A DNA stretch of 52,329 nt, from sequence record NC_048799.1; one strand, written 5' to 3'. This DNA comes from Escherichia phage Mangalitsa. This document shows, in pieces, positions 2,368-23,436 of the stretch (its first letter is position 1; each line of letters starts with the position of its first letter). The notes below the pieces were generated by a model. It made no database searches. It was not told the origin of the DNA and worked only from the letters and a program-made list of their open reading frames with translations. A program made the position numbers and the translations under genes.

Positions 2368-2568
2368 ATGAATACCATGCAAATCAAACAAATCGAAAAC
2401 TGTTTCAATCCTCACCACACTTGCAGCATGACTGATTTATCTCGTCCTACAGTGGAGGAGACTAAAGACTTCTTAGAATTGTTGTCAGAATATAAACAAG
2501 AATCGCATGTATTATTGCATGCATATTTACACAACTCTGGATACTTTGATACAGAGATACCGTTCTGA
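2368..2568 (+). CDS. hypothetical early protein (66 aa) ending in DTEIPF
   Basis: ORF-track frame 2332..2568 begins at TTG; the internal ATG at 2368 has a GGAGA RBS. C-terminus ...SGYFDTEIPF. Confidence 0.45.
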   Translation: MNTMQIKQIENCFNPHHTCSMTDLSRPTVEETKDFLELLSEYKQESHVLLHAYLHNSGYFDTEIPF

Positions 2569-2573
2569 TACTC

Positions 2574-2598
2574 GGGAGCTTCGGCTCCCTTTTCTTGT
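2574..2598 (+). terminator. intrinsic terminator, GGGAGC-UUCG-GCUCCC hairpin plus U-tract
   Basis: Perfect 6-bp GC stem with UUCG tetraloop followed by TTTTCTTGTTT, directly after the RNAP operon. Confidence 0.6.
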
Positions 2599-4445: not shown

Positions 4446-4634
4446 ATGGACTTCATCGTCTTCTTCAAATTAAATGATGTAGAGCAAAGGTTATACTTCA
4501 ATTCTTTATTTCGTTTACAGGAGTGGGCGGAGAAGTTTGTTGGTTACGACTTTGAATACATCAATGCATGTACAACTGACGAACATGAGGAAATCGTGTT
4601 CAGTTCTTTAAATCAAATTCTGGAGGCCAAATGA
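4446..4634 (+). CDS. hypothetical early protein
   Basis: ORF tightly packed against neighbours. Confidence 0.45.
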   Translation: MDFIVFFKLNDVEQRLYFNSLFRLQEWAEKFVGYDFEYINACTTDEHEEIVFSSLNQILEAK

Positions 4635-4876
4635 GCCAGTTTAAGTTAAAAGCAGATTTAATCGAATTGGCCTCTTATGAAGAGAAGGTCGAATTCATTC
4701 AGGAGCGTCTTGTTGTTAACTATGGTGGTTGGTGGGATATTGCAACAGATGAGCTAGTCACCATTGTTAAGGAAGAATTCGGCATTGAGCTGACCAATAA
4801 GCAATTTCTTGATGATGTTCTCACAGATAAAGTCGTTAAAGAAATTACAACCAATTTCATGACAAGTGTTCAGTAG
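4631..4876 (+). CDS. hypothetical early protein
   Basis: ATGA overlap with the upstream gene. Confidence 0.5.
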   Translation: MSQFKLKADLIELASYEEKVEFIQERLVVNYGGWWDIATDELVTIVKEEFGIELTNKQFLDDVLTDKVVKEITTNFMTSVQ

Positions 4877-4885
4877 GAGTATTAA

Positions 4886-5059
4886 ATGAACGACCAGCAA
4901 TTCAACACATTCATGCAGCAGATTAATCATCAAGAACTGATGGATGCCATCAAAGGCAAGAAGCCAGTCGAACGTCAATATCGTAAAATTGATAATTATA
5001 TGCCAACAATCATTGCATGTGTTGGTGTTGCTATTGTTCTCTACTTCCTGGTGAAATAA
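4886..5059 (+). CDS. hypothetical small membrane protein (57 aa)
   Basis: TAGGAGT RBS; hydrophobic C-terminal segment TIIACVGVAIVLYFLV; below ORF-track cutoff. Confidence 0.4.
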   Translation: MNDQQFNTFMQQINHQELMDAIKGKKPVERQYRKIDNYMPTIIACVGVAIVLYFLVK

Positions 5060-5154
5060 TGGACATTGTTAAGAAATTAGTGTTCTGCATTCTAATGTTC
5101 CCTCTGGTGCTGCTCGTTGTGGGCAGCTTCTTAATCTTTTAATAAGGTAATTCA

Positions 5155-5730: not shown

Positions 5731-5947
5731 ATGTGTTGCTTCAACCAAAGATTATGTTCCAGTTGGCTTCATCGTTGAAGGTGAAGCTATCTCACCTTTG
5801 GAATTTAAAGTGACCAAATCGGCTGAGGATGTTTCTCCAGCATTTCGTAAAGGTGCTGTCGTTCCTATGAATGGTGTATTCTGGACATGGCAGCGTGACC
5901 ATGAAGCAGAATTTGCAGATATTTGTGAACAAGGGTTATTGCAATGA
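5720..5947 (+). CDS. hypothetical protein, tandem paralog A
   Basis: Starts MKFKCVASTKDY..., contains VFWTW; resembles the next gene. Confidence 0.5.
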   Translation: MKFKCVASTKDYVPVGFIVEGEAISPLEFKVTKSAEDVSPAFRKGAVVPMNGVFWTWQRDHEAEFADICEQGLLQ

Positions 5948-6809: not shown

Positions 6810-6850
6810 ATTAACAAGGGGCATTCATTGAGTGTTCCTGATTAATTCAA

Positions 6851-6870
6851 CATTAGTTGGATGTGAGAGA
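6851..6870 (+). promoter_or_regulatory. phage-RNAP-type promoter CATTAGTTGGATGTGAGAGA
   Basis: Motif family member, 70 nt upstream of the SSB-tail gene. Confidence 0.55.
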
Positions 6871-6938: not shown

Positions 6939-7313
6939 ATGGCACAATTTAACGATTTAAACACTGGTATTCTGGGTTCCAATGGCTTCAAGAAAGCTGA
7001 AAATCATCCAGACGTTCGTGGTCGCATTAACGTAGAAGGTATTTGGTATTGGGTGTCTGGCTGGAATAAGAAAGCTGGCAACACCGAATTTACCTCATTG
7101 GCACTCACCATCATGACTCAGGAACAGGTTGATGAAATGATGCGTAAGCGTGAAGAGAAGGCTAAAGCCAAAGCTCAACCTCAAGCTGCCGCTCAACAGC
7201 AACAGCCACGCCAGCAGCCAACTCAGCAACAGCAAGCTCCTGCTCAACAACAACAGCAGAGCAATTATAACCCGAACGAGCCGAAAGACTTCGACGACGA
7301 CATTCCATTCTAA
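6939..7313 (+). CDS. mini SSB-like protein: short N-domain, Gln/Pro-rich linker and a C-terminal tip identical to E. coli SSB (DFDDDIPF)
   Basis: C-terminus ...NPNEPKDFDDDIPF; low-complexity linker QPQAAAQQQQPRQQPTQQQQAPAQQQQQ; N-terminal 70 aa is too short for a canonical OB-fold SSB. Confidence 0.55.
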   Translation: MAQFNDLNTGILGSNGFKKAENHPDVRGRINVEGIWYWVSGWNKKAGNTEFTSLALTIMTQEQVDEMMRKREEKAKAKAQPQAAAQQQQPRQQPTQQQQAPAQQQQQSNYNPNEPKDFDDDIPF

Positions 7314-7326
7314 TTGGAGATGCCCT

Positions 7327-7446
7327 ATGAAAATTTTATGTTTTATAGGGCTACATAATTGGGAGATTTCTCATACAAACGATTATGTAACCTTTTGGGT
7401 GTGTAAGCACTGCTCAGAAATGCGTGAGGAGTATCATGGACAATAA
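7327..7446 (+). CDS. hypothetical small Cys/His-containing peptide (39 aa)
   Basis: GGAGA RBS; MKILCFIGLHNWEISHTNDYVTFWVCKHC...; below ORF-track cutoff. Confidence 0.3.
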   Translation: MKILCFIGLHNWEISHTNDYVTFWVCKHCSEMREEYHGQ

Positions 7447-7912
7447 GTTTGTCGAAATACCTGCCAACTTGGTTAAAGCTGGCGACGTATTAGTATATAG
7501 CAACAGAGAATATTTAATTGTAAAAGTTCTGCGATTTAGTTCTGTAGTTCAACTCCAATATTCCGGAGGATACTACAATTTTGAGTTTGGGCGCATAGTC
7601 AAAGTGTTGGACAGGCCACCAGCTTCAGGAACCTCAACAATTGAATTCCCAAACCAAATAAATCCAGTATTCCTTCCTGTGGAGAATAACATGGAAACAT
7701 TAAATATTCAAAATGCAATCGAAGCACAACGCATTCTTCTGCAAAAGTTGGAGCAAATGTTGGAATTAACCCAGCTTACACCAACAAAAGATGGCAAGAT
7801 TGCAATTGGCAACTGTAACATTCGCGTGGACAAGGCATCAATCACTAAAGCCGTACGAGATGAAATGAAAGCTGCCGCAAGCAAATCCGCAGAGCTTATC
7901 AAGAAGCTGTAA
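7436..7912 (+). CDS. hypothetical protein
   Basis: ATG 7436 with GAGGAG RBS (ORF-track frame begins earlier at 7424). Confidence 0.5.
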   Translation: MDNKFVEIPANLVKAGDVLVYSNREYLIVKVLRFSSVVQLQYSGGYYNFEFGRIVKVLDRPPASGTSTIEFPNQINPVFLPVENNMETLNIQNAIEAQRILLQKLEQMLELTQLTPTKDGKIAIGNCNIRVDKASITKAVRDEMKAAASKSAELIKKL

Positions 7913-7964
7913 TTAACAGAGGTCATTCCACTTCGAGTGGCCTCGATTAATTATTGGAGGTTAC

Positions 7965-11434: not shown

Positions 11435-11749
11435 ATGATTCGTAAGCATTCTGCCAAAGTTTTGACATTGAGAAATGTCCTCATGCCATTAACAGGAAAA
11501 GAGGAAGAAACAATCCACTTCGTCCTGATTGGTGGACGTTGGTACTATAATGGGACAAACGCCTTCGAAGTTACCAAGTCCCTCAAAGACGGGTTCTGGA
11601 AGAACAATATTAAAGAAGTTCTTTCGGTTAGTGCAAACTACACCCTCGGAGAAGTTAAAAGATTCTTCTACCATGGCCCAAACAAGTCCATGCAAATTGC
11701 AATGCGCGAGTGGACAACAAACCAACCAATTTACGGAGTACCATTTTAA
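11435..11749 (+). CDS. hypothetical protein ending in YGVPF
   Basis: GGAGAG RBS; C-terminal hydrophobic-Pro-Phe. Confidence 0.5.
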   Translation: MIRKHSAKVLTLRNVLMPLTGKEEETIHFVLIGGRWYYNGTNAFEVTKSLKDGFWKNNIKEVLSVSANYTLGEVKRFFYHGPNKSMQIAMREWTTNQPIYGVPF

Positions 11750-12734: not shown

Positions 12735-12764
12735 GTCGTTTGTTAAATCAGAGCAGTTCTGAAA

Positions 12765-12784
12765 CATTAGTTGAATGTGAAAAG
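12765..12784 (+). promoter_or_regulatory. phage-RNAP-type promoter CATTAGTTGAATGTGAAAAG
   Basis: Motif family member upstream of the acidic protein gene. Confidence 0.55.
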
Positions 12785-12857: not shown

Positions 12858-13196
12858 ATGGCTAAGATTGTAACCGTAACTCAGTATGAAGCTAACGATG
12901 GTTCCCTGTTCCTGAGCGAAGCAGAATGTAACGCACACGATTTTAAACTGGAAAACGGTGCTAAAATCGACGCAGCTGTTGAAGCGTTCGCCAACACCAT
13001 GAAACTGGTTGACCGTTCTCGCTCCATGCAGAGCAACACTGTTGCATCCTTCCTGGCATTCTACCTGCCGTGGGTTGAAGCTGGTTGCCCGGAAGTTGAA
13101 CGTGTTGCGTTCGACACTCCGAAAGAAGTCAAAGTTGCCGAAGCAGAAGTAGTTGAAGCTGTTGAAGCTGCTGTGGAAGAAGCTCCGGTATTCTAA
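12858..13196 (+). CDS. small acidic protein with acidic tail ending in PVF; candidate DNA mimic or replisome-docking protein
   Basis: About 20 Asp/Glu against 9 Lys/Arg; tail VAEAEVVEAVEAAVEEAPVF; codon usage typical of highly expressed enterobacterial genes (CTG, CCG, CGT, GAA). Confidence 0.55.
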   Translation: MAKIVTVTQYEANDGSLFLSEAECNAHDFKLENGAKIDAAVEAFANTMKLVDRSRSMQSNTVASFLAFYLPWVEAGCPEVERVAFDTPKEVKVAEAEVVEAVEAAVEEAPVF

Positions 13197-17019: not shown

Positions 17020-18783
17020 ATGAACGTCAAGCAATGTGTTGCCAAGATTAAGCACGATGTACCAGACTGTAAATCCACATCTGGCAAGTCTTTACAGGTT
17101 TGGTTGAATGTCGATGAAGCTGGTAATAAGAACTTCTCTGGTTACTGCTTTGCATGTGGCGTTCTCGTTCCGAATCCGTACGGCAATAATCCGGAGAATA
17201 TTCCGGAAATTAAAGTCAAGACTCCAGAAGAAATTCAGGAAGAAATTGACGAAGTAACCTCGTGCCCTCCGTTTGATTTAGACCATCGCAGCATTGAACC
17301 AGAATTCTGGAAAGCTGCTGGTGTTCGCCTACTCTACTCAGAGTTTGATGGCAAAACTCCAAATGCTTTGGCGCATGGGTATACCAAGAATGGCAAACTT
17401 GTTCGTTGGAAGATTAAACTTCTGAACAAGAAAGTCATGTGGTCTGTTGGCGATACTCAGGGTAATGACCCGTATAACTGGATGGCTGCAAAAGCAATTG
17501 GCGGTAAGACACTGTTCATCACAGAAGGTGAAGAAGATTGTATCGCATTGCGTCAAATCCTCAAGACTATGAACCGTGGTGGTGCATATGAAGATTTGGA
17601 TTTTGCTGTAATTAGTTTGAGTGATGGAAGTGATTCCGTACATAAATGTTTGTCACCAGTTGCAGAAGAAATTAAGCAACGTTGGGAGCAGGTTGTTATC
17701 GTATTTGATGATGATGAACCTGGTCGTAAAGCTGCTAAGGAAGCATGTCGTTTGTTGCCTGGTGCAATGATTGCAACACTTCCAGCTAACGATGCCAACG
17801 ATTGTCTGAAGCGTGGTTTGCTCAAAGCCACTCAGTCTGCTGTTGTATTCCGTGCTGCCCGTCCTCTCCCCACAGCACTCGTCAATAAAGAGCTTCTTAT
17901 GGAAGAGCTTGATGATGAAGTTGAACAGGGTGTGGACTATCCTTGGCCTAAGTTAACCGACTTAATGTTTGGTCAGCGTCGTGCCGAAGTTATCTCAATT
18001 GGTGGTGCAGAAGGTGGTGGTAAAACCACACTGTCACGACAGATTGTGCATCACAACATTGTTCAGCATGATTGGGGAGTGTTTACTGCATACATGGAGG
18101 AAACTCCAGCAGAAACATTACGCCGTATGGCTGGCCTTAATGACAATTTGCCATATTGGGAACCTGCGTTTACACGCGAAGACCCTCGATATGATGAAGC
18201 TAAGTTCCGTCAAACTGCTGCGAAGATGCTTCGTAACATGGAGATTTGGGACCGCAAGCAAGCTGGAGAAGACCCTTATGAAACTTGGGATGGGTTAAAG
18301 ACGATTCTTCGTCAGATTGGTCCAGACATTGATATGTTTGTTCTTGATAACTTAACCTATTTATCGGAAGGGATTTCTGCGTCAGAGAAGAACGACTTTC
18401 TGGGCAAGCTGTATGCAGACATTACAAAGTTAGCAGACCAGTACCAGTTCCACGTTAATATTCTGTCGCACCTTAACCCTGTGGCAAAAGGGCAACGACC
18501 TCATGAAGATGGTGGACGTATCAAGAAGTCAGACTTTACTGGCTCTCGTGCTGCTGCTAAATATTCTCATGGTATGTTTGGTTTTGAGCGTAATAGTCAG
18601 GCAGTAGACCCAAACTGTTCTATTATTCGTTCCATCAAAGCTCGTAAGAGTGGTAAAACAGAAGGCTTCAAGACGTACTATGATACAGACTCAGGTCGAA
18701 TCATTCAACGTTCTTGGGAAGATTCACTGTTTGAAACTAAAGAGATTGTTCAACTTACTAAGAAGAACGGTCCACACCAATAA
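17020..18783 (+). CDS. bifunctional primase-helicase (T7 gp4-like)
   Basis: N-terminal Cys pair, TOPRIM-like ITEGEEDC and VFDDDEPG, helicase Walker A GGAEGGGKTT and Walker B FVLDNL. Confidence 0.8.
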   Translation: MNVKQCVAKIKHDVPDCKSTSGKSLQVWLNVDEAGNKNFSGYCFACGVLVPNPYGNNPENIPEIKVKTPEEIQEEIDEVTSCPPFDLDHRSIEPEFWKAAGVRLLYSEFDGKTPNALAHGYTKNGKLVRWKIKLLNKKVMWSVGDTQGNDPYNWMAAKAIGGKTLFITEGEEDCIALRQILKTMNRGGAYEDLDFAVISLSDGSDSVHKCLSPVAEEIKQRWEQVVIVFDDDEPGRKAAKEACRLLPGAMIATLPANDANDCLKRGLLKATQSAVVFRAARPLPTALVNKELLMEELDDEVEQGVDYPWPKLTDLMFGQRRAEVISIGGAEGGGKTTLSRQIVHHNIVQHDWGVFTAYMEETPAETLRRMAGLNDNLPYWEPAFTREDPRYDEAKFRQTAAKMLRNMEIWDRKQAGEDPYETWDGLKTILRQIGPDIDMFVLDNLTYLSEGISASEKNDFLGKLYADITKLADQYQFHVNILSHLNPVAKGQRPHEDGGRIKKSDFTGSRAAAKYSHGMFGFERNSQAVDPNCSIIRSIKARKSGKTEGFKTYYDTDSGRIIQRSWEDSLFETKEIVQLTKKNGPHQ

Positions 18784-18870
18784 CAGAGCTGCTGCGCTGC
18801 ATGGTTCGCCCACCAGCGCGGCCCTCCCTAAATCCATTGGAGCCATACTGTGTTGTATCCTTGGGAAAAT

Positions 18871-20784
18871 ATGTATGCCAGTGACATTGAAACAACTGGT
18901 TTGTTGGAGCAGATGAAGAAACAGGCTGCACCACGTCTTCACAACATTGGATACATTGATGTTCAAACTCGTGAAGAAACTGTAATTGAGTGGACGCAAC
19001 GAAAATCCATTCAAGACTTTCTGGACACAGGTCCAACACTAATCATGCACAACGGCGCAACCTTTGACTTCGAAGCATTGAAGTTCCTTGGTTATGACGT
19101 TTCAAAATGTACTCTGATTGATACACTATTTATCAGTTGGTATCTCCAACCTCGTCGTGTTAAGCACGGACTTGAAGGTTATGGTGAAGAGTTTGGTGTG
19201 CCTAAACCAATCATTGATGATTGGGAAAACCAAACACAAGAAGAGTACAACCATCGTGTACTGGAAGACTGTAAGATTCAGCACAAGTTGTGGGAACAGC
19301 AGTATATCCAGTTACTCAAGATTTATAAGACTCCATCTGAAGTAAGACGCTTTGTTGAATACTTGATGACCAAAGCTCGCCAACAGGTTATTCAGCAACG
19401 TACTCGTTGGAAGTTGAACATTGAGAAGGCATTGGCATTTAAGGCCAAGCTGGAACCAATGATTAAAGAGAAGACCGACGCATTAGAAGCATCAATGCCG
19501 AGTATTCCAGAATATGCAATCAAAACTCGTCCAGCCAAATGCCACAAGCTAAATGGGCAGTTGTCTGCCACTGGACTTAAGTGGAAAGCTGTTTGTGATG
19601 CAAACGGTTTAGACTGGAAAGACCCAGACTTGGCTATCAAAGTTCTAAAGGGTTATAAAAAGCCAAACGCTGGTTCTCATGTACAAATTAAAGATTGGCT
19701 ATTCAGCTTAGGCTGGGAGCCAGAAACATTTAAGTTTGACCGTAATAAGGAAACAGGCGAGACTCGCCAGATTCCTCAAATTACTGTAAAGGATGAAGAT
19801 GGCAATCCTGAAATCTGTCCGAGCTTGCATAAGCTGGCAGAAAGAAACCCCGACTCCGGTATTCAACACCTTATTGGTATGGGCGTGTATAAACATCGTC
19901 TGTCTGTTGTTAATGGTTTCCTTCGCGACGTCGATGAAGATGGATTCCTTACTGCGCGATGCGGTGGTCTTACCAATACTTTACGTCTTAAACACCGCGA
20001 ACTTGTTAACCTCCCTTCTATTCGCGTATTTGGCGGTGAAGAGCTTCGTTCAATGTTGGAAGCGTGGCGCGAAGACTACGAACAGTTAGGCTCTGACTTG
20101 TGTTCACTGGAAGACCGCTGTAAGCACCACTTCCAATGGATGTATGACCCTGAATATGTTAAGAAGCAGTTGGCACCAGACTATGATGCTCACCTTGCAA
20201 TTGGCGTAATCGGTGGGTTCATCACTGAGAAAGAATCTCAGGACCATAAGGATGGAATACAGAAATGTAAGCAACGTCCAATGTTTAAGACCACTAACTA
20301 TGCTTGTCAATATGGTGCTGGCATTCCAACTGTTGCTCGTTCTGCCGACTGTGACCAAGCAACGGCTGCGCGTCTACATAAAGCATATTGGGACTTGAAC
20401 TGGTCCATCAAAGAGATTGCTGCTAACACTAAAGTAATTACAGTTGATGGTCAGATGTGGCAACAGAATCCAGTAAACAAATTCTGGTATTCGTTGCGTA
20501 CAGAGAAAGACCGATTCTCAACACTGTGTCAGGGCACTGGTGCATATGTGTTTGACATTTGGTGTAACAACATTATTGCAATTTGTAACGAACGTTGGGG
20601 ATGTGACCCGCTTCTGTCTGGACAATTCCATGATGAATTGATTCTCCAGGTTAAGAAAGGCTTCCGCGATTTGTGGACGGACTTGCTTAATGAAGCAATG
20701 GACCGAACCAACAAAGAACTTAAACTTAACCGTGATTGTGCATGTGATGTGCAGTTCGGTGATAACTACGCAGAGATTCACTAA
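18871..20784 (+). CDS. family A DNA polymerase with 3'-5' exonuclease domain
   Basis: Exo I motif ASDIETTGL; Pol A motif B-like KTTNYACQYGAG; C-terminal His. Start uncertain (ATG 18871 or GTG 18850). Confidence 0.8.
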   Translation: MYASDIETTGLLEQMKKQAAPRLHNIGYIDVQTREETVIEWTQRKSIQDFLDTGPTLIMHNGATFDFEALKFLGYDVSKCTLIDTLFISWYLQPRRVKHGLEGYGEEFGVPKPIIDDWENQTQEEYNHRVLEDCKIQHKLWEQQYIQLLKIYKTPSEVRRFVEYLMTKARQQVIQQRTRWKLNIEKALAFKAKLEPMIKEKTDALEASMPSIPEYAIKTRPAKCHKLNGQLSATGLKWKAVCDANGLDWKDPDLAIKVLKGYKKPNAGSHVQIKDWLFSLGWEPETFKFDRNKETGETRQIPQITVKDEDGNPEICPSLHKLAERNPDSGIQHLIGMGVYKHRLSVVNGFLRDVDEDGFLTARCGGLTNTLRLKHRELVNLPSIRVFGGEELRSMLEAWREDYEQLGSDLCSLEDRCKHHFQWMYDPEYVKKQLAPDYDAHLAIGVIGGFITEKESQDHKDGIQKCKQRPMFKTTNYACQYGAGIPTVARSADCDQATAARLHKAYWDLNWSIKEIAANTKVITVDGQMWQQNPVNKFWYSLRTEKDRFSTLCQGTGAYVFDIWCNNIIAICNERWGCDPLLSGQFHDELILQVKKGFRDLWTDLLNEAMDRTNKELKLNRDCACDVQFGDNYAEIH

Positions 20785-21084: not shown

Positions 21085-21951
21085 ATGGCATTTGCTGCTC
21101 CTACCCTGGCCTCGAACAAGACTCCTTCTGCTGCACCATTACTGGAAGCGGGTGGTTATCCTGCTCGTGTTTGCCGTATTATCGACCTGGGCCTACAGCC
21201 TGGTTCTGCTAAATATCCTACCCCGTCTCTGAAACTTCTGGTTTCTTTCGAACTTCTCGACGAGTACATGAAAGAAGTTGATGGCGAAGGTAAAATGGTC
21301 ATGGTCCAAGACCCGGACGAAGATGACGGCGTAATGATGGCGAAGAATCTTGAAGACAAGCCGCGTTGGTTTGACTTTGAGTTTACCTACAACGCTGACG
21401 GCTTCATGGGTGACAACTCCCACATCTACAAATTCGCTAAAGCGATTGATGCTCTGGAAGTTAAACAGAATCTGGAACAAGGCATTCAGGGCCATCCTGC
21501 CAAGAACCTGCCAGATTGGTTGGGCGAACCTCTGATTGTTGGCATTGTTCAGTATACCAAGCAGTCCGGTAAGAATGCTGGCCAGGTTGCAAACAAAGTT
21601 GCTACCTTCTCTCCGATGAAATCTAAGGAGAAGAAAGAAGCTAAAGCTCTGGTTAACCCGACTGTCTTCTTTGACATGTCTGAGCCGGACCTGGAAGTAT
21701 TCAACAAACTGCCAGGTGGCGAATCTCCGTATGCAATCAAGAACCGTATTACTTCCGGTGTTGATTTCTACAAGACTAAGCTGTCTGCACTATTAGGCGG
21801 TAAGCCTGCCGATGAAGGCGCTGTACCGAATCAGGCTTCTGATGAAGAAGTTGATGCAGCTATGAAAGCTGAACTGGAAGCACAGGCTGCTGCAAAAGCA
21901 CAGCGTGAAGCGGAAGGTGGTGCTGCTGGCGGTACTGGAATGCCCTTTTAA
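21085..21951 (+). CDS. candidate ssDNA-binding or annealing protein with flexible tail ending in GMPF
   Basis: Sits immediately after DNAP; high-expression codon usage; Ala/Gly/Glu-rich C-terminal region ending ...GGTGMPF, reminiscent of gp2.5 or SSB tails. Confidence 0.35.
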   Translation: MAFAAPTLASNKTPSAAPLLEAGGYPARVCRIIDLGLQPGSAKYPTPSLKLLVSFELLDEYMKEVDGEGKMVMVQDPDEDDGVMMAKNLEDKPRWFDFEFTYNADGFMGDNSHIYKFAKAIDALEVKQNLEQGIQGHPAKNLPDWLGEPLIVGIVQYTKQSGKNAGQVANKVATFSPMKSKEKKEAKALVNPTVFFDMSEPDLEVFNKLPGGESPYAIKNRITSGVDFYKTKLSALLGGKPADEGAVPNQASDEEVDAAMKAELEAQAAAKAQREAEGGAAGGTGMPF

Positions 21952-21992: not shown

Positions 21993-22421
21993 ATGAAAGT
22001 TTGTAGTTCATGTAAAACACCAAAGCCTTTATCTGAATTCTATAAATGGAAGTTGGGTAAAGATGGGCATCGAGCAAGCTGCAAGTTTTGTGTAAACAAA
22101 CAAAACAACAGCAGCATAAGCAAGAACCCAGAGGCCAAACTTCGAGCAAACCGTAAGTATAAGAAAGTTAATATCGACAAAGTTCGAGAGCAAACTTCTT
22201 TGTACAGAAACTCAAACCCAATAAAACGTGCAGCACATGTTGCAGTCCAAATAGCTCTTAGAGAGCACAGACTTGTAAAAGGTGCTTGCGAATGTTGTGG
22301 AGATACTAATTCAGTAGCTCACCACGACGACTATTCCAAGCCTCTGGATGTGAGGTGGTTGTGCAACTTCCACCACAAACAGTGGCACACCAAGAACGGA
22401 GAAGGACTTAATGGTAAGTAA
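21993..22421 (+). CDS. HNH endonuclease
   Basis: N-terminal CxxC pairs; C-terminal AHHDDY...WLCNFHH HNH-like motif. Confidence 0.5.
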   Translation: MKVCSSCKTPKPLSEFYKWKLGKDGHRASCKFCVNKQNNSSISKNPEAKLRANRKYKKVNIDKVREQTSLYRNSNPIKRAAHVAVQIALREHRLVKGACECCGDTNSVAHHDDYSKPLDVRWLCNFHHKQWHTKNGEGLNGK

Positions 22422-23436
22422 GAAGCGCGTCCTGCTTCTCGTTGATGCAGATATGGTTGCATTTTCCCACTGCGCGGCAGAAGAATATGGGAAAGAGCCA
22501 GGAGATATAAACTTCGCCAAGATTCAAATGTCCATAGACTCCAAGATGGAGTTCCTTGCCAAGCGTTCTGGAGCCACGGAGATTATGAGTTTTGTATCCC
22601 CGTCTGAAACTATGAGACATGTCTTTGCTCCTGACTACAAGGGCAACCGTGATAACGTATGGCGTCCAGAAAACCTTAAGAATGCGAAAGCACATCTCAT
22701 GGTTGCATGGAATGGAATGTGGATGAAGGGTCTGGAAGCAGATGACCTTCTGGCTGTATTCGCTCGACATGAATACGAAGCAACAATGGGTAAACGTAAT
22801 GAGATTAAGAGCCTCAAGCGCATTGGTCCGTGCACATATGATGAAGTCTGGATTGCATCGTTGGACAAAGACTTGCGTCAAATCGGGCAGAACGGTGGTG
22901 TTGGTCCAGTAATCAAGCACTACCAGTGGGAACGCGAAACCCAGGGCATTGGTGAGAAAATCGTAATCCCGAAAGATTATGGTGAACTCAAACTAATCAT
23001 CAAGGACAATGGTAAAACGAAGAAGAAAGAAGTTAAAGGCAATGGTCCCAAATTCTTCTTGCATCAATTGCTTATTGGCGACTCAACGGATAACGTTATG
23101 GGTTGCGGAGTTCTTGAAGAAAGAATCTACAAAACTGGTGCCAAAGCCGGAGAAACTTATTTCCGTCGTGATGGCATTGGTGCAGTTGCTTCATTCGAAA
23201 TGCTGGATGGTACAACCTCCTATGCAGAAGGTTTGAAGAAAGTTATTGGTGCATATATTGTGCGCTTCGGAGATGGTTGGGAACAAGAGCTGCTCAAAGT
23301 GGGCCGTCTTGTTTACATGCACCATCAAATTGAAAAGGGTAATTGTGTTCGCTTGTGGCATTACAAGAACATTAACGAATACTTTGACCTTAAAGAGAAT
23401 CGTATCCTCACTCAAGAAGAGTACCTCCAGAAATAA
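22411..23436 (+). CDS. 5'-3' exonuclease / flap endonuclease (T7 gp6-like)
   Basis: LLVDADMVAF, PDYKGNR, EADDLLAV and SLDKDL match the T7 gene 6 pattern as recalled. Confidence 0.75.
   Translation: MVSKKRVLLLVDADMVAFSHCAAEEYGKEPGDINFAKIQMSIDSKMEFLAKRSGATEIMSFVSPSETMRHVFAPDYKGNRDNVWRPENLKNAKAHLMVAWNGMWMKGLEADDLLAVFARHEYEATMGKRNEIKSLKRIGPCTYDEVWIASLDKDLRQIGQNGGVGPVIKHYQWERETQGIGEKIVIPKDYGELKLIIKDNGKTKKKEVKGNGPKFFLHQLLIGDSTDNVMGCGVLEERIYKTGAKAGETYFRRDGIGAVASFEMLDGTTSYAEGLKKVIGAYIVRFGDGWEQELLKVGRLVYMHHQIEKGNCVRLWHYKNINEYFDLKENRILTQEEYLQK

Follow-up and report, generated by a model that had tools for sequence, protein, structure and literature searches.

Why should several proteins of one phage end in the same way as SSB, its host's single-stranded DNA-binding protein? 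In the genome of Escherichia phage Mangalitsa (NC_048799.1; the window, a complete phage genome of 52,329 bp, IMG/VR UViG 2974545116), five open reading frames (ORFs), here called p1 to p5, encode proteins that end in a hydrophobic residue, proline and phenylalanine or a close variant of this, and p2 (6939-7313) ends in DFDDDIPF, the tip of E. coli SSB. In E. coli this tip is reported to recruit at least 17 partners (PMC10018359), and its terminal Phe and carboxylate are reported to suffice for docking to many of the partner enzymes (PMC10018359, PMC3936761). It is a hub for replication, repair and recombination enzymes, and is pursued as an antibacterial target. An exact copy of it on a domain other than an OB fold, together with tip-like ends on p5 and on tiny early proteins, raises the question of whether tip mimicry by a phage just recruits host enzymes or also competes with host SSB and disarms pathways. 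A first-pass annotation of the window had proposed one multi-protein docking system. We find that these termini exist as annotated, occur more often than expected and are under selection, and that the five tails differ in how closely their sequences resemble the SSB tip.

PF termini are enriched in the window and conserved in related phages

The five proteins are as follows.

2368..2568 (+), p1: 66 amino acids from ATG (a TTG at 2332 would give 78 amino acids), ending ...GYFDTEIPF
6939..7313 (+), p2: 124 amino acids, annotated ‘SSB’ in relatives, ending ...PKDFDDDIPF
11435..11749 (+), p3: 104 amino acids, ending ...QPIYGVPF
12858..13196 (+), p4: 112 amino acids, ending ...VEEAPVF
21085..21951 (+), p5: 288 amino acids, ending ...GGTGMPF

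All five translate from the + strand with the endings that the first-pass annotation had given. p4 ends in PVF and so has no PF terminus; its conserved motif is an acidic residue followed by Pro, a hydrophobic residue and Phe. The annotation had also put the chance expectation for a PF ending far below one per genome, and this is borne out: the 74 + strand genes include four PF termini where 0.117 would be expected from the window's own composition (P 3.8%, F 4.2%; Poisson P = 7e-6). A terminal Phe of any kind is found in 9 of these proteins, against 3.1 expected. When all 381 six-frame ORFs of at least 40 amino acids in the window are considered, p1, p2, p3 and p5 alone end in PF. The same six-frame count in 18 related loci returned 30 PF-ending ORFs among 2,316, all 30 of them on the coding strand, and none among the 1,186 ORFs of the opposite strand; 28 of the 30 fall in the families of the 66-, 124-, 104- and 288-residue proteins. 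The PF pattern was chosen post hoc, and its significance holds after correction for 400 dipeptides. Its conservation in relatives, for which the annotation had suggested a search, gives the pattern independent support.

It is hard to credit that these termini reflect chance and shared ancestry and are without function. The post hoc definition of the pattern would favor such an explanation, as would phage T7, whose single PF-terminal ORF is the nested gene 4.2, of doubtful status. Against it stand the Poisson probability and the empty opposite strand, and the retention of the termini in four unrelated families as the neighboring residues diverge; the conservation data effectively refute it.

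A position matrix was computed for the eight C-terminal residues of 97 independent p2-family tails (the family is described below) and applied to every C-terminus in the window. p1 to p5 occupy ranks 1 to 5 of the 74 C-termini, with scores of 28.3 bits for p2, 11.4 for p1, -1.5 for p5, -3.3 for p3 and -8.2 for p4; the sixth scores -9.2 bits. Beyond the last three residues, p1 is alone among the four other tails in resembling the SSB tip by this measure.

p2 bears the E. coli SSB tip on a predicted non-OB domain

The p2 protein can be divided into four segments.

6939-7118 (+), residues 1-60: four-stranded beta domain in the AlphaFold2 model
7119-7175 (+), residues 61-79: helix in the AlphaFold2 model
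7176-7286 (+), residues ~80-116: disordered Gln/Pro linker, rich in Gln, Pro and Ala, with a predicted local distance difference test (pLDDT) value below 50
7287-7310 (+), residues 117-124: the tip DFDDDIPF, followed by the stop codon

The AlphaFold2 model, built with 30 homologs, places strands at residues 11-14, 26-32, 35-46 and 49-58, with a pLDDT of about 90 across the domain; in it, residues 81-114 are the disordered part. The first-pass annotation had read p2 as an exact SSB tip on an SSB-like Gln/Pro-rich linker, behind an N-terminal domain too short for a canonical OB fold, and each part of this agrees with our results: the last eight residues are identical to those of E. coli SSB in alignments to PDB entries 1eqq and 7f2n, the linker is disordered in the model, and no Pfam SSB profile matches p2, whose domain is modeled with four beta strands. 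Across 30 aligned homologs, F118, D119, P123 and F124 never vary and the tip as a whole hardly does; it is nearly invariant in 17 related loci too, and ...DIPF is retained in homologs even at 33-40% identity. None of 5,426 E. coli genomes has DNA similarity to the 3′ end of the p2 gene. It is therefore at the protein level that the tip is kept identical, and recent capture of the tip from host ssb can be set aside.

p2 follows the same three-part logic as the bacterial homotetrameric SSBs (PF00436, TIGR00621) and their phage and plasmid copies, in which a disordered Gln/Pro/Gly linker connects a DNA-binding-type domain with an acidic tip. It agrees with these canonical proteins in its disordered, Gln/Pro-rich linker and in the acidic tip at the very end, and lacks their N-terminal OB-fold domain. 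Searches against Pfam returned neither an SSB match nor a DUF736 match for p2, which does match PHROG 7364 (‘single strand DNA binding protein’) at 1.1e-38 and PHROG 18154 at 4.6e-17. A truncated canonical SSB is ruled out, as p2 has no OB-fold profile match or structural match.

In three p2 homologs (P0007, P0019 and P0026) a 15-residue extension, APIGLQEGRRYLHCI, continues past ...IPF and makes the Phe internal. No such extension is encoded 3′ of the p2 stop codon in the window. It could result from loss of a stop codon, from a fusion or from an assembly error.

p2 belongs to a large family annotated as SSB

A profile of the p2 N-terminal domain retrieved 2,077 proteins at E-values up to 1e-3 from 1.84 billion cluster representatives. 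The members are 60-200 amino acids long; the helix is missing from many, and the domain occurs as a tandem pair in some. Among the 149 best representatives, 97 end in PF, mostly as D-D-[DE]-[ILV]-P-F. The family occurs in ~140 isolated phages, where it is nearly always labeled SSB. p2 is a clear member of the group of short phage ‘SSBs’ filed under PHROG 7364 and 18154, which combine a DUF736-like domain with an SSB tip, and we find this architecture in a family of over 2,000 clusters, whose name is a label given by annotation. A possible relation to DUF736 (PF05284) is suggested by the tandem-domain relative P0193, which scores 24.7 against a Pfam cut-off of 22.1, and by Foldseek, which pairs the p2 model with a viral DUF736 protein at a probability of 0.90. 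A PDB sequence search with a broad p2-family profile gave no match, and searches of the literature and the PDB returned neither a characterizing paper nor a solved structure for the family. A BLAST search of the plasmids in PLSDB found no p2-family match, and therefore, at BLAST sensitivity, no link to the ssb genes of plasmid leading regions. Depending on what this family binds, thousands of ‘SSB’ annotations would be validated or corrected.

Several features suggest that the p2 family does the job of an SSB on another fold. The first is genomic position: in Klebsiella phage K21lambda1, Acinetobacter phage Bhz20 and Vibrio phage VP5, the p2-family gene directly adjoins the genes for DNA polymerase I and a helicase, whereas in the window it lies in the early region. 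The tails in these three phages read, in the same order, SEPPMDFDDDIPF, DLDDDLPF and NEPPMDFDDDIPF. The other features are the occurrence of single and tandem forms and a conserved aromatic cluster, W36, Y37, W38 and W42, which the model places on the beta sheet. Among the closest known systems for comparison with p2 are the ssDNA-binding folds of the PC4, Whirly and Pur-alpha type, including the PC4-like protein of phage T5 (PDB code 4bg7).

A different role for p2, and for p1, would be that of a decoy: rather than acting as an SSB, p2 would use its linker-borne tip mainly to titrate SSB-interacting enzymes off host SSB, and so shut down host replication restart and repair or blind the defenses that depend on them. 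This corresponds to the host takeover suggested by the first-pass annotation. The predicted absence of an OB fold in p2 would fit this, as would the presence of an OB-fold SSB candidate, p5, in the replication module already, and the early-region position of the p2 gene, behind a phage promoter of its own. p1 and a 55-residue ORFan of a 4HA13-like phage (see below) are likewise tiny and acidic, with SSB-tip endings and no evident DNA-binding domain. We nonetheless regard the decoy role as improbable. Other phage lineages have the p2 family at the position of a replicative SSB, and no other SSB is annotated within the 8-kb stretches that we examined around these genes. The tandem-domain members have a counterpart in true SSBs, which come with one or two OB folds, and the aromatic cluster on the beta sheet would suit base stacking.

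p5 is a probable replicative SSB or annealing protein

The model of p5 is confident and predicts an OB-fold protein with structural matches to OB-fold SSBs, a C-terminal helix at residues 253-278 and a disordered tail at residues 280-288 (pLDDT below 50) that ends in GMPF. p5 is a probable replicative SSB or annealing protein. Its closer homologs (P0050-P0133, 51-98% identity) all end in x-P-F (84/84), and its relatives in further loci end in PF in 19 of 19 cases at 53% identity or above. Of the 36 distant homologs listed (28-42% identity), almost every one has an acidic tail, and an aromatic end is seen in 30, mostly as PY, PW, EW or DW. Tails of T7 gp2.5-type proteins show this behavior.

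The literature of the Richardson laboratory describes contacts of the gp2.5 and gp4 tails with the T7 polymerase. Their termini read ...EDGDF and ...NDTDF, and the analogy that the first-pass annotation drew with them is apt. p5 is like gp2.5 in its predicted OB-fold core, its flexible tail ending in Phe and its position in a T7-like module, and the distant p5 homologs also share strongly acidic tails with a mostly aromatic end. It differs in having no detectable sequence homology to gp2.5 and in the tail of its own clade, which is rich in Gly, Ala and Asn, ends in x-P-F and is not strongly acidic. Since hhalign shows no relation to gp2.5 or to the SSB of phage HK620, p5 is, by analogy, a functional counterpart of both proteins and not a member of either family. 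Membership as a gp2.5 or DUF669 homolog is excluded by the negative hhalign results for both, given below, and by the lack of any match between the p5 profile and PDB sequences.

The NCBIfam model NF046043 (‘phage replication initiation protein, NGO0469 family’) matches p5 residues 18-210 with 59.9 bits, below its cut-off of 75. The name of that family may be misleading, because the predicted structure of p5 is an OB fold that resembles ssDNA-binding proteins.

Three small proteins without mutual homology have similar endings

p1 is an acidic protein (isoelectric point (pI) 5.1) of PHROG 20790, encoded at the end of the RNA polymerase operon; its gene is found in only three of the related loci. 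Its tail, YFDTEIPF, outscores all 14,326 internal 8-mers of the proteome, and FDTEIPF contains every sequence element of the SSB-tip motif: acidic residues, hydrophobic-Pro-Phe and a free C-terminus. Two p1 homologs in which the last 20 residues are different (...QERWEEEHNGCPF, ending NGCPF) keep the PF. A further conserved feature of p1 is the sequence CFNPHHTC at residues 12-19, of the form C-x-x-x-H-H-x-C, where a small metal-binding site could lie.

p3 is basic (pI 9.7), and its tail, YGVPF, is without acidic residues. Carltongylesvirus-like relatives retain YGVPF or NGVPF down to 33% identity, as does Aeromonas phage phiA050.

p4 (PHROG 17419) is acidic (pI 4.4) with an Ala/Glu/Val-rich tail, and has homologs in 79 phage records, from phages of Escherichia, Erwinia, Yersinia, Pectobacterium, Proteus and Aeromonas. 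A terminal Phe is present in 16 of 17 loci, with the consensus [DE][EQA]-P-hydrophobic-F, although the tail sequence drifts. The p4 homolog in L042 (IMG/VR UViG 3300036796_000091) is the exception and ends ...EEELFPQ.

We found no mutual homology and no common context among p1, p3 and p4. It is accordingly conceivable, and in our judgment a possibility of some weight though not a probable one, that docking tails exist on p2 and p5 only: the terminal Phe of p1, p3 and p4 would then pack against its own fold or bind private partners, and the shared ending would be in part convergence on a useful hydrophobic C-terminus. Besides the missing homology and context, the low matrix scores of p3, p4 and p5, the confinement of the p3 tail to one clade and the different order of the p4 motif (P-hydrophobic-F) argue for this. 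What argues against it is, for p1, a near-perfect SSB tip that is retained when the preceding 20 residues change and, for p4, a terminal Phe that persists while the tail drifts, as one expects of a linear motif carried by a flexible tail. Four PF termini in 74 proteins would also be very unlikely without a common cause.

Phage HK620 and a 4HA13-like phage offer parallels

Phage HK620 (L019) has two PF-terminal ORFs, at 4481-5068 (-) and 5754-5942 (-), both inside a four-gene recombination module. They encode a DUF669 SSB (...NDYPPF) and, next to it, the 62-residue orphan HkaM (...SVPSELPF). HK620 combines an SSB and a small protein, both PF-tailed, independently of the combination in the window. 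The last six residues of this non-canonical SSB, NDYPPF, are needed to stimulate its partner Sak4 (PMC5928155), and its tail scores 9.5 bits on our matrix. As a phage SSB with a P-F tail it is among the closest known systems; it is not homologous to p5 or p2, and no Sak4 is annotated in the window phage.

In a genome like that of Escherichia phage vB_EcoM_4HA13 (IMG/VR UViG 2974699376), L011:194-361 (+) encodes the 55-residue ORFan mentioned above. It ends ...APTDEFDIPF (12.8 bits), is very acidic (pI 4.05), has a good ribosome-binding site and is unrelated to p1-p5; neither the window nor the other loci contain a homolog of it.

Tails that are host-like or end in an aromatic residue are already known from phage SSBs, so the tails described here are not a new category. 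Our literature searches on SSB-tip mimics in phages, on DUF736 and on the tip returned no account of multi-protein PF tails or of the p2 family. By these searches, two things appear undescribed: the recurrence of the PF motif on several unrelated small early proteins, and a very large ‘SSB’-annotated family that is without an OB fold or characterization.

The tails may act as C-terminal docking peptides

In our favored explanation, to which we give about even weight, the tails serve as C-terminal docking peptides like those with which SSBs recruit partner enzymes, p2 and p5 are SSB-class hubs, and p1, p4 and p3 belong to the same class of tail. Each flexible tail would end in a phenylalanine whose side chain and free carboxylate plug a pocket of the partner. 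The phage would encode two hub proteins, p2 and p5. The small non-OB beta domain of p2 probably acts as a dimer or higher oligomer in binding ssDNA. The p2 tip, being an exact copy of the one on E. coli SSB, should fit the same host pockets (those of chi, PriA, RecQ, Exo I, RecO, RecG, DnaG and others), as well as any phage proteins that have evolved to read the tip. Phage ssDNA coated by p2 would then, by established SSB biology, recruit host SSB-interacting enzymes or compete for them. The x-P-F tail of p5 most likely contacts phage replication or recombination enzymes, by analogy with the contacts of gp2.5 to gp5 and gp4 and of the HK620 SSB to Sak4. p1, p4 and p3, in order of falling likelihood, would dock their terminal Phe onto one of the same pockets as adaptors or competitors, which is the least supported step. 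That p1 uses the same class of pocket as p2 is quite likely; for p4 and p3 it is less likely.

A number of observations weigh against this explanation. The p3, p4 and p5 tails agree with the SSB tip in the last two or three residues only, and the proline of p4 lies at -3 and not at -2. The p3 tail is lost in more distant Erwinia and Pantoea phages. For p2, the NCBIfam SSB models cover residues 40-124 only, with scores far under their cut-offs, and PDB SSB sequences align only to the linker and tip; the ‘SSB’ label of the family may thus have spread from similarity in linker and tip alone, and our literature search found no demonstration of ssDNA binding by the p2 domain. The p5 tail is barely acidic in this clade, with a net charge of -1 over the last 12 residues. 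Four distant p5 homologs (L044-L047) end in DPFE, DPFA, DVFD and DPFA, one residue past the Phe, and such an extra residue would be unsuited to a pocket that reads the terminal carboxylate. hhalign gives p5 a probability of 0.3% of being related to T7 gp2.5 (alignment A2) and 0.1% to the DUF669 SSB of HK620, and NF046043, at its sub-cut-off score, names the relatives of p5 ‘replication initiation protein’.

For the single docking system of the first-pass annotation, the part that stands is that the termini are non-random and conserved. As a system it is supported only in part: p2 and p5 are ordinary in kind, such tails being the rule on SSB-class proteins, and the five are not homogeneous: two are SSB-class, and of the rest p1 alone is otherwise tip-like. 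The three small proteins with similar tails may still make a testable case for tip mimicry. Host takeover through shared pockets would be a plausible reading of these sequences and, like anti-defense, is a hypothesis.

A broader proposal, which we consider unlikely at present, joins these elements: Chaseviridae phages, perhaps phages generally, would deploy unrelated small effectors that mimic the SSB tip, and the p2 family would be a new non-OB ssDNA-binding fold with a convergent SSB linker and tip. Candidate mimics would be p1 (YFDTEIPF) and the 4HA13-like ORFan (DEFDIPF), possibly p3 and p4, and perhaps HkaM (SELPF). If this were true, they would form a new class of effectors that plug, or ride on, the pockets for the SSB tip in host enzymes of genome maintenance or defense.

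Genomic setting of the five genes

The window is a Carltongylesvirus genome (Chaseviridae, Cleopatravirinae), closely related to phiEcoM-GJ1-like E. coli myophages. Its genes run on the + strand from a single-subunit RNA polymerase gene (211-2325) through many small early genes, interspersed with phage promoters of the type CATTAGTTGGATGTGA, to the replication module and the structural genes. The following elements lie around the genes discussed above.

2574..2589 (+): terminator-like hairpin, immediately 3′ of p1
6848..6867 (+): phage-type promoter CAACATTAGTTGGATGTGAG, which heads the p2 transcription unit and is identical to the promoter annotated 5′ of the SA91KD SSB gene
7919..7944 (+): terminator-like hairpin that closes the unit of p2 and ORF 7424-7912; SA91KD has a terminator annotated at the equivalent site
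12762..12781 (+): phage-type promoter 5′ of p4, with two mismatches to the SA91KD promoter set
17020-18783 (+): gp4-like primase-helicase by Pfam and PHROG matches, a candidate phage-side partner for the tails
18850-20784 (+): family A DNA polymerase by Pfam and PHROG matches, a candidate phage-side partner for the tails

In SA91KD, the homolog of p4 forms a single-gene unit with its own promoter and terminator. The replication module has a T7-like order: ThyX, the gp4-like primase-helicase, the family A polymerase, a 90-residue ORF and p5, followed 3′ by an endonuclease VII-like gene (21993), a 5′-3′ exonuclease (22411-23436) and a ligase (23962).

Escherichia phage FXie-2024a (PP107930.1) is the nearest record for the regions of the window that were searched, and Escherichia virus TH53 (MT446419.1) is ~89% identical to it in the region compared. 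Right behind the p2 stop codon, the window has a 39-codon, Cys-rich ORF at 7327-7446 (+) (MKILCFIGLHNWEISHTNDYVTFWVCKHCSEMREEYHG...). Judged by size and position, it appears to match SA91KD_20, a coding sequence for 39 amino acids that follows the SSB gene in that phage.

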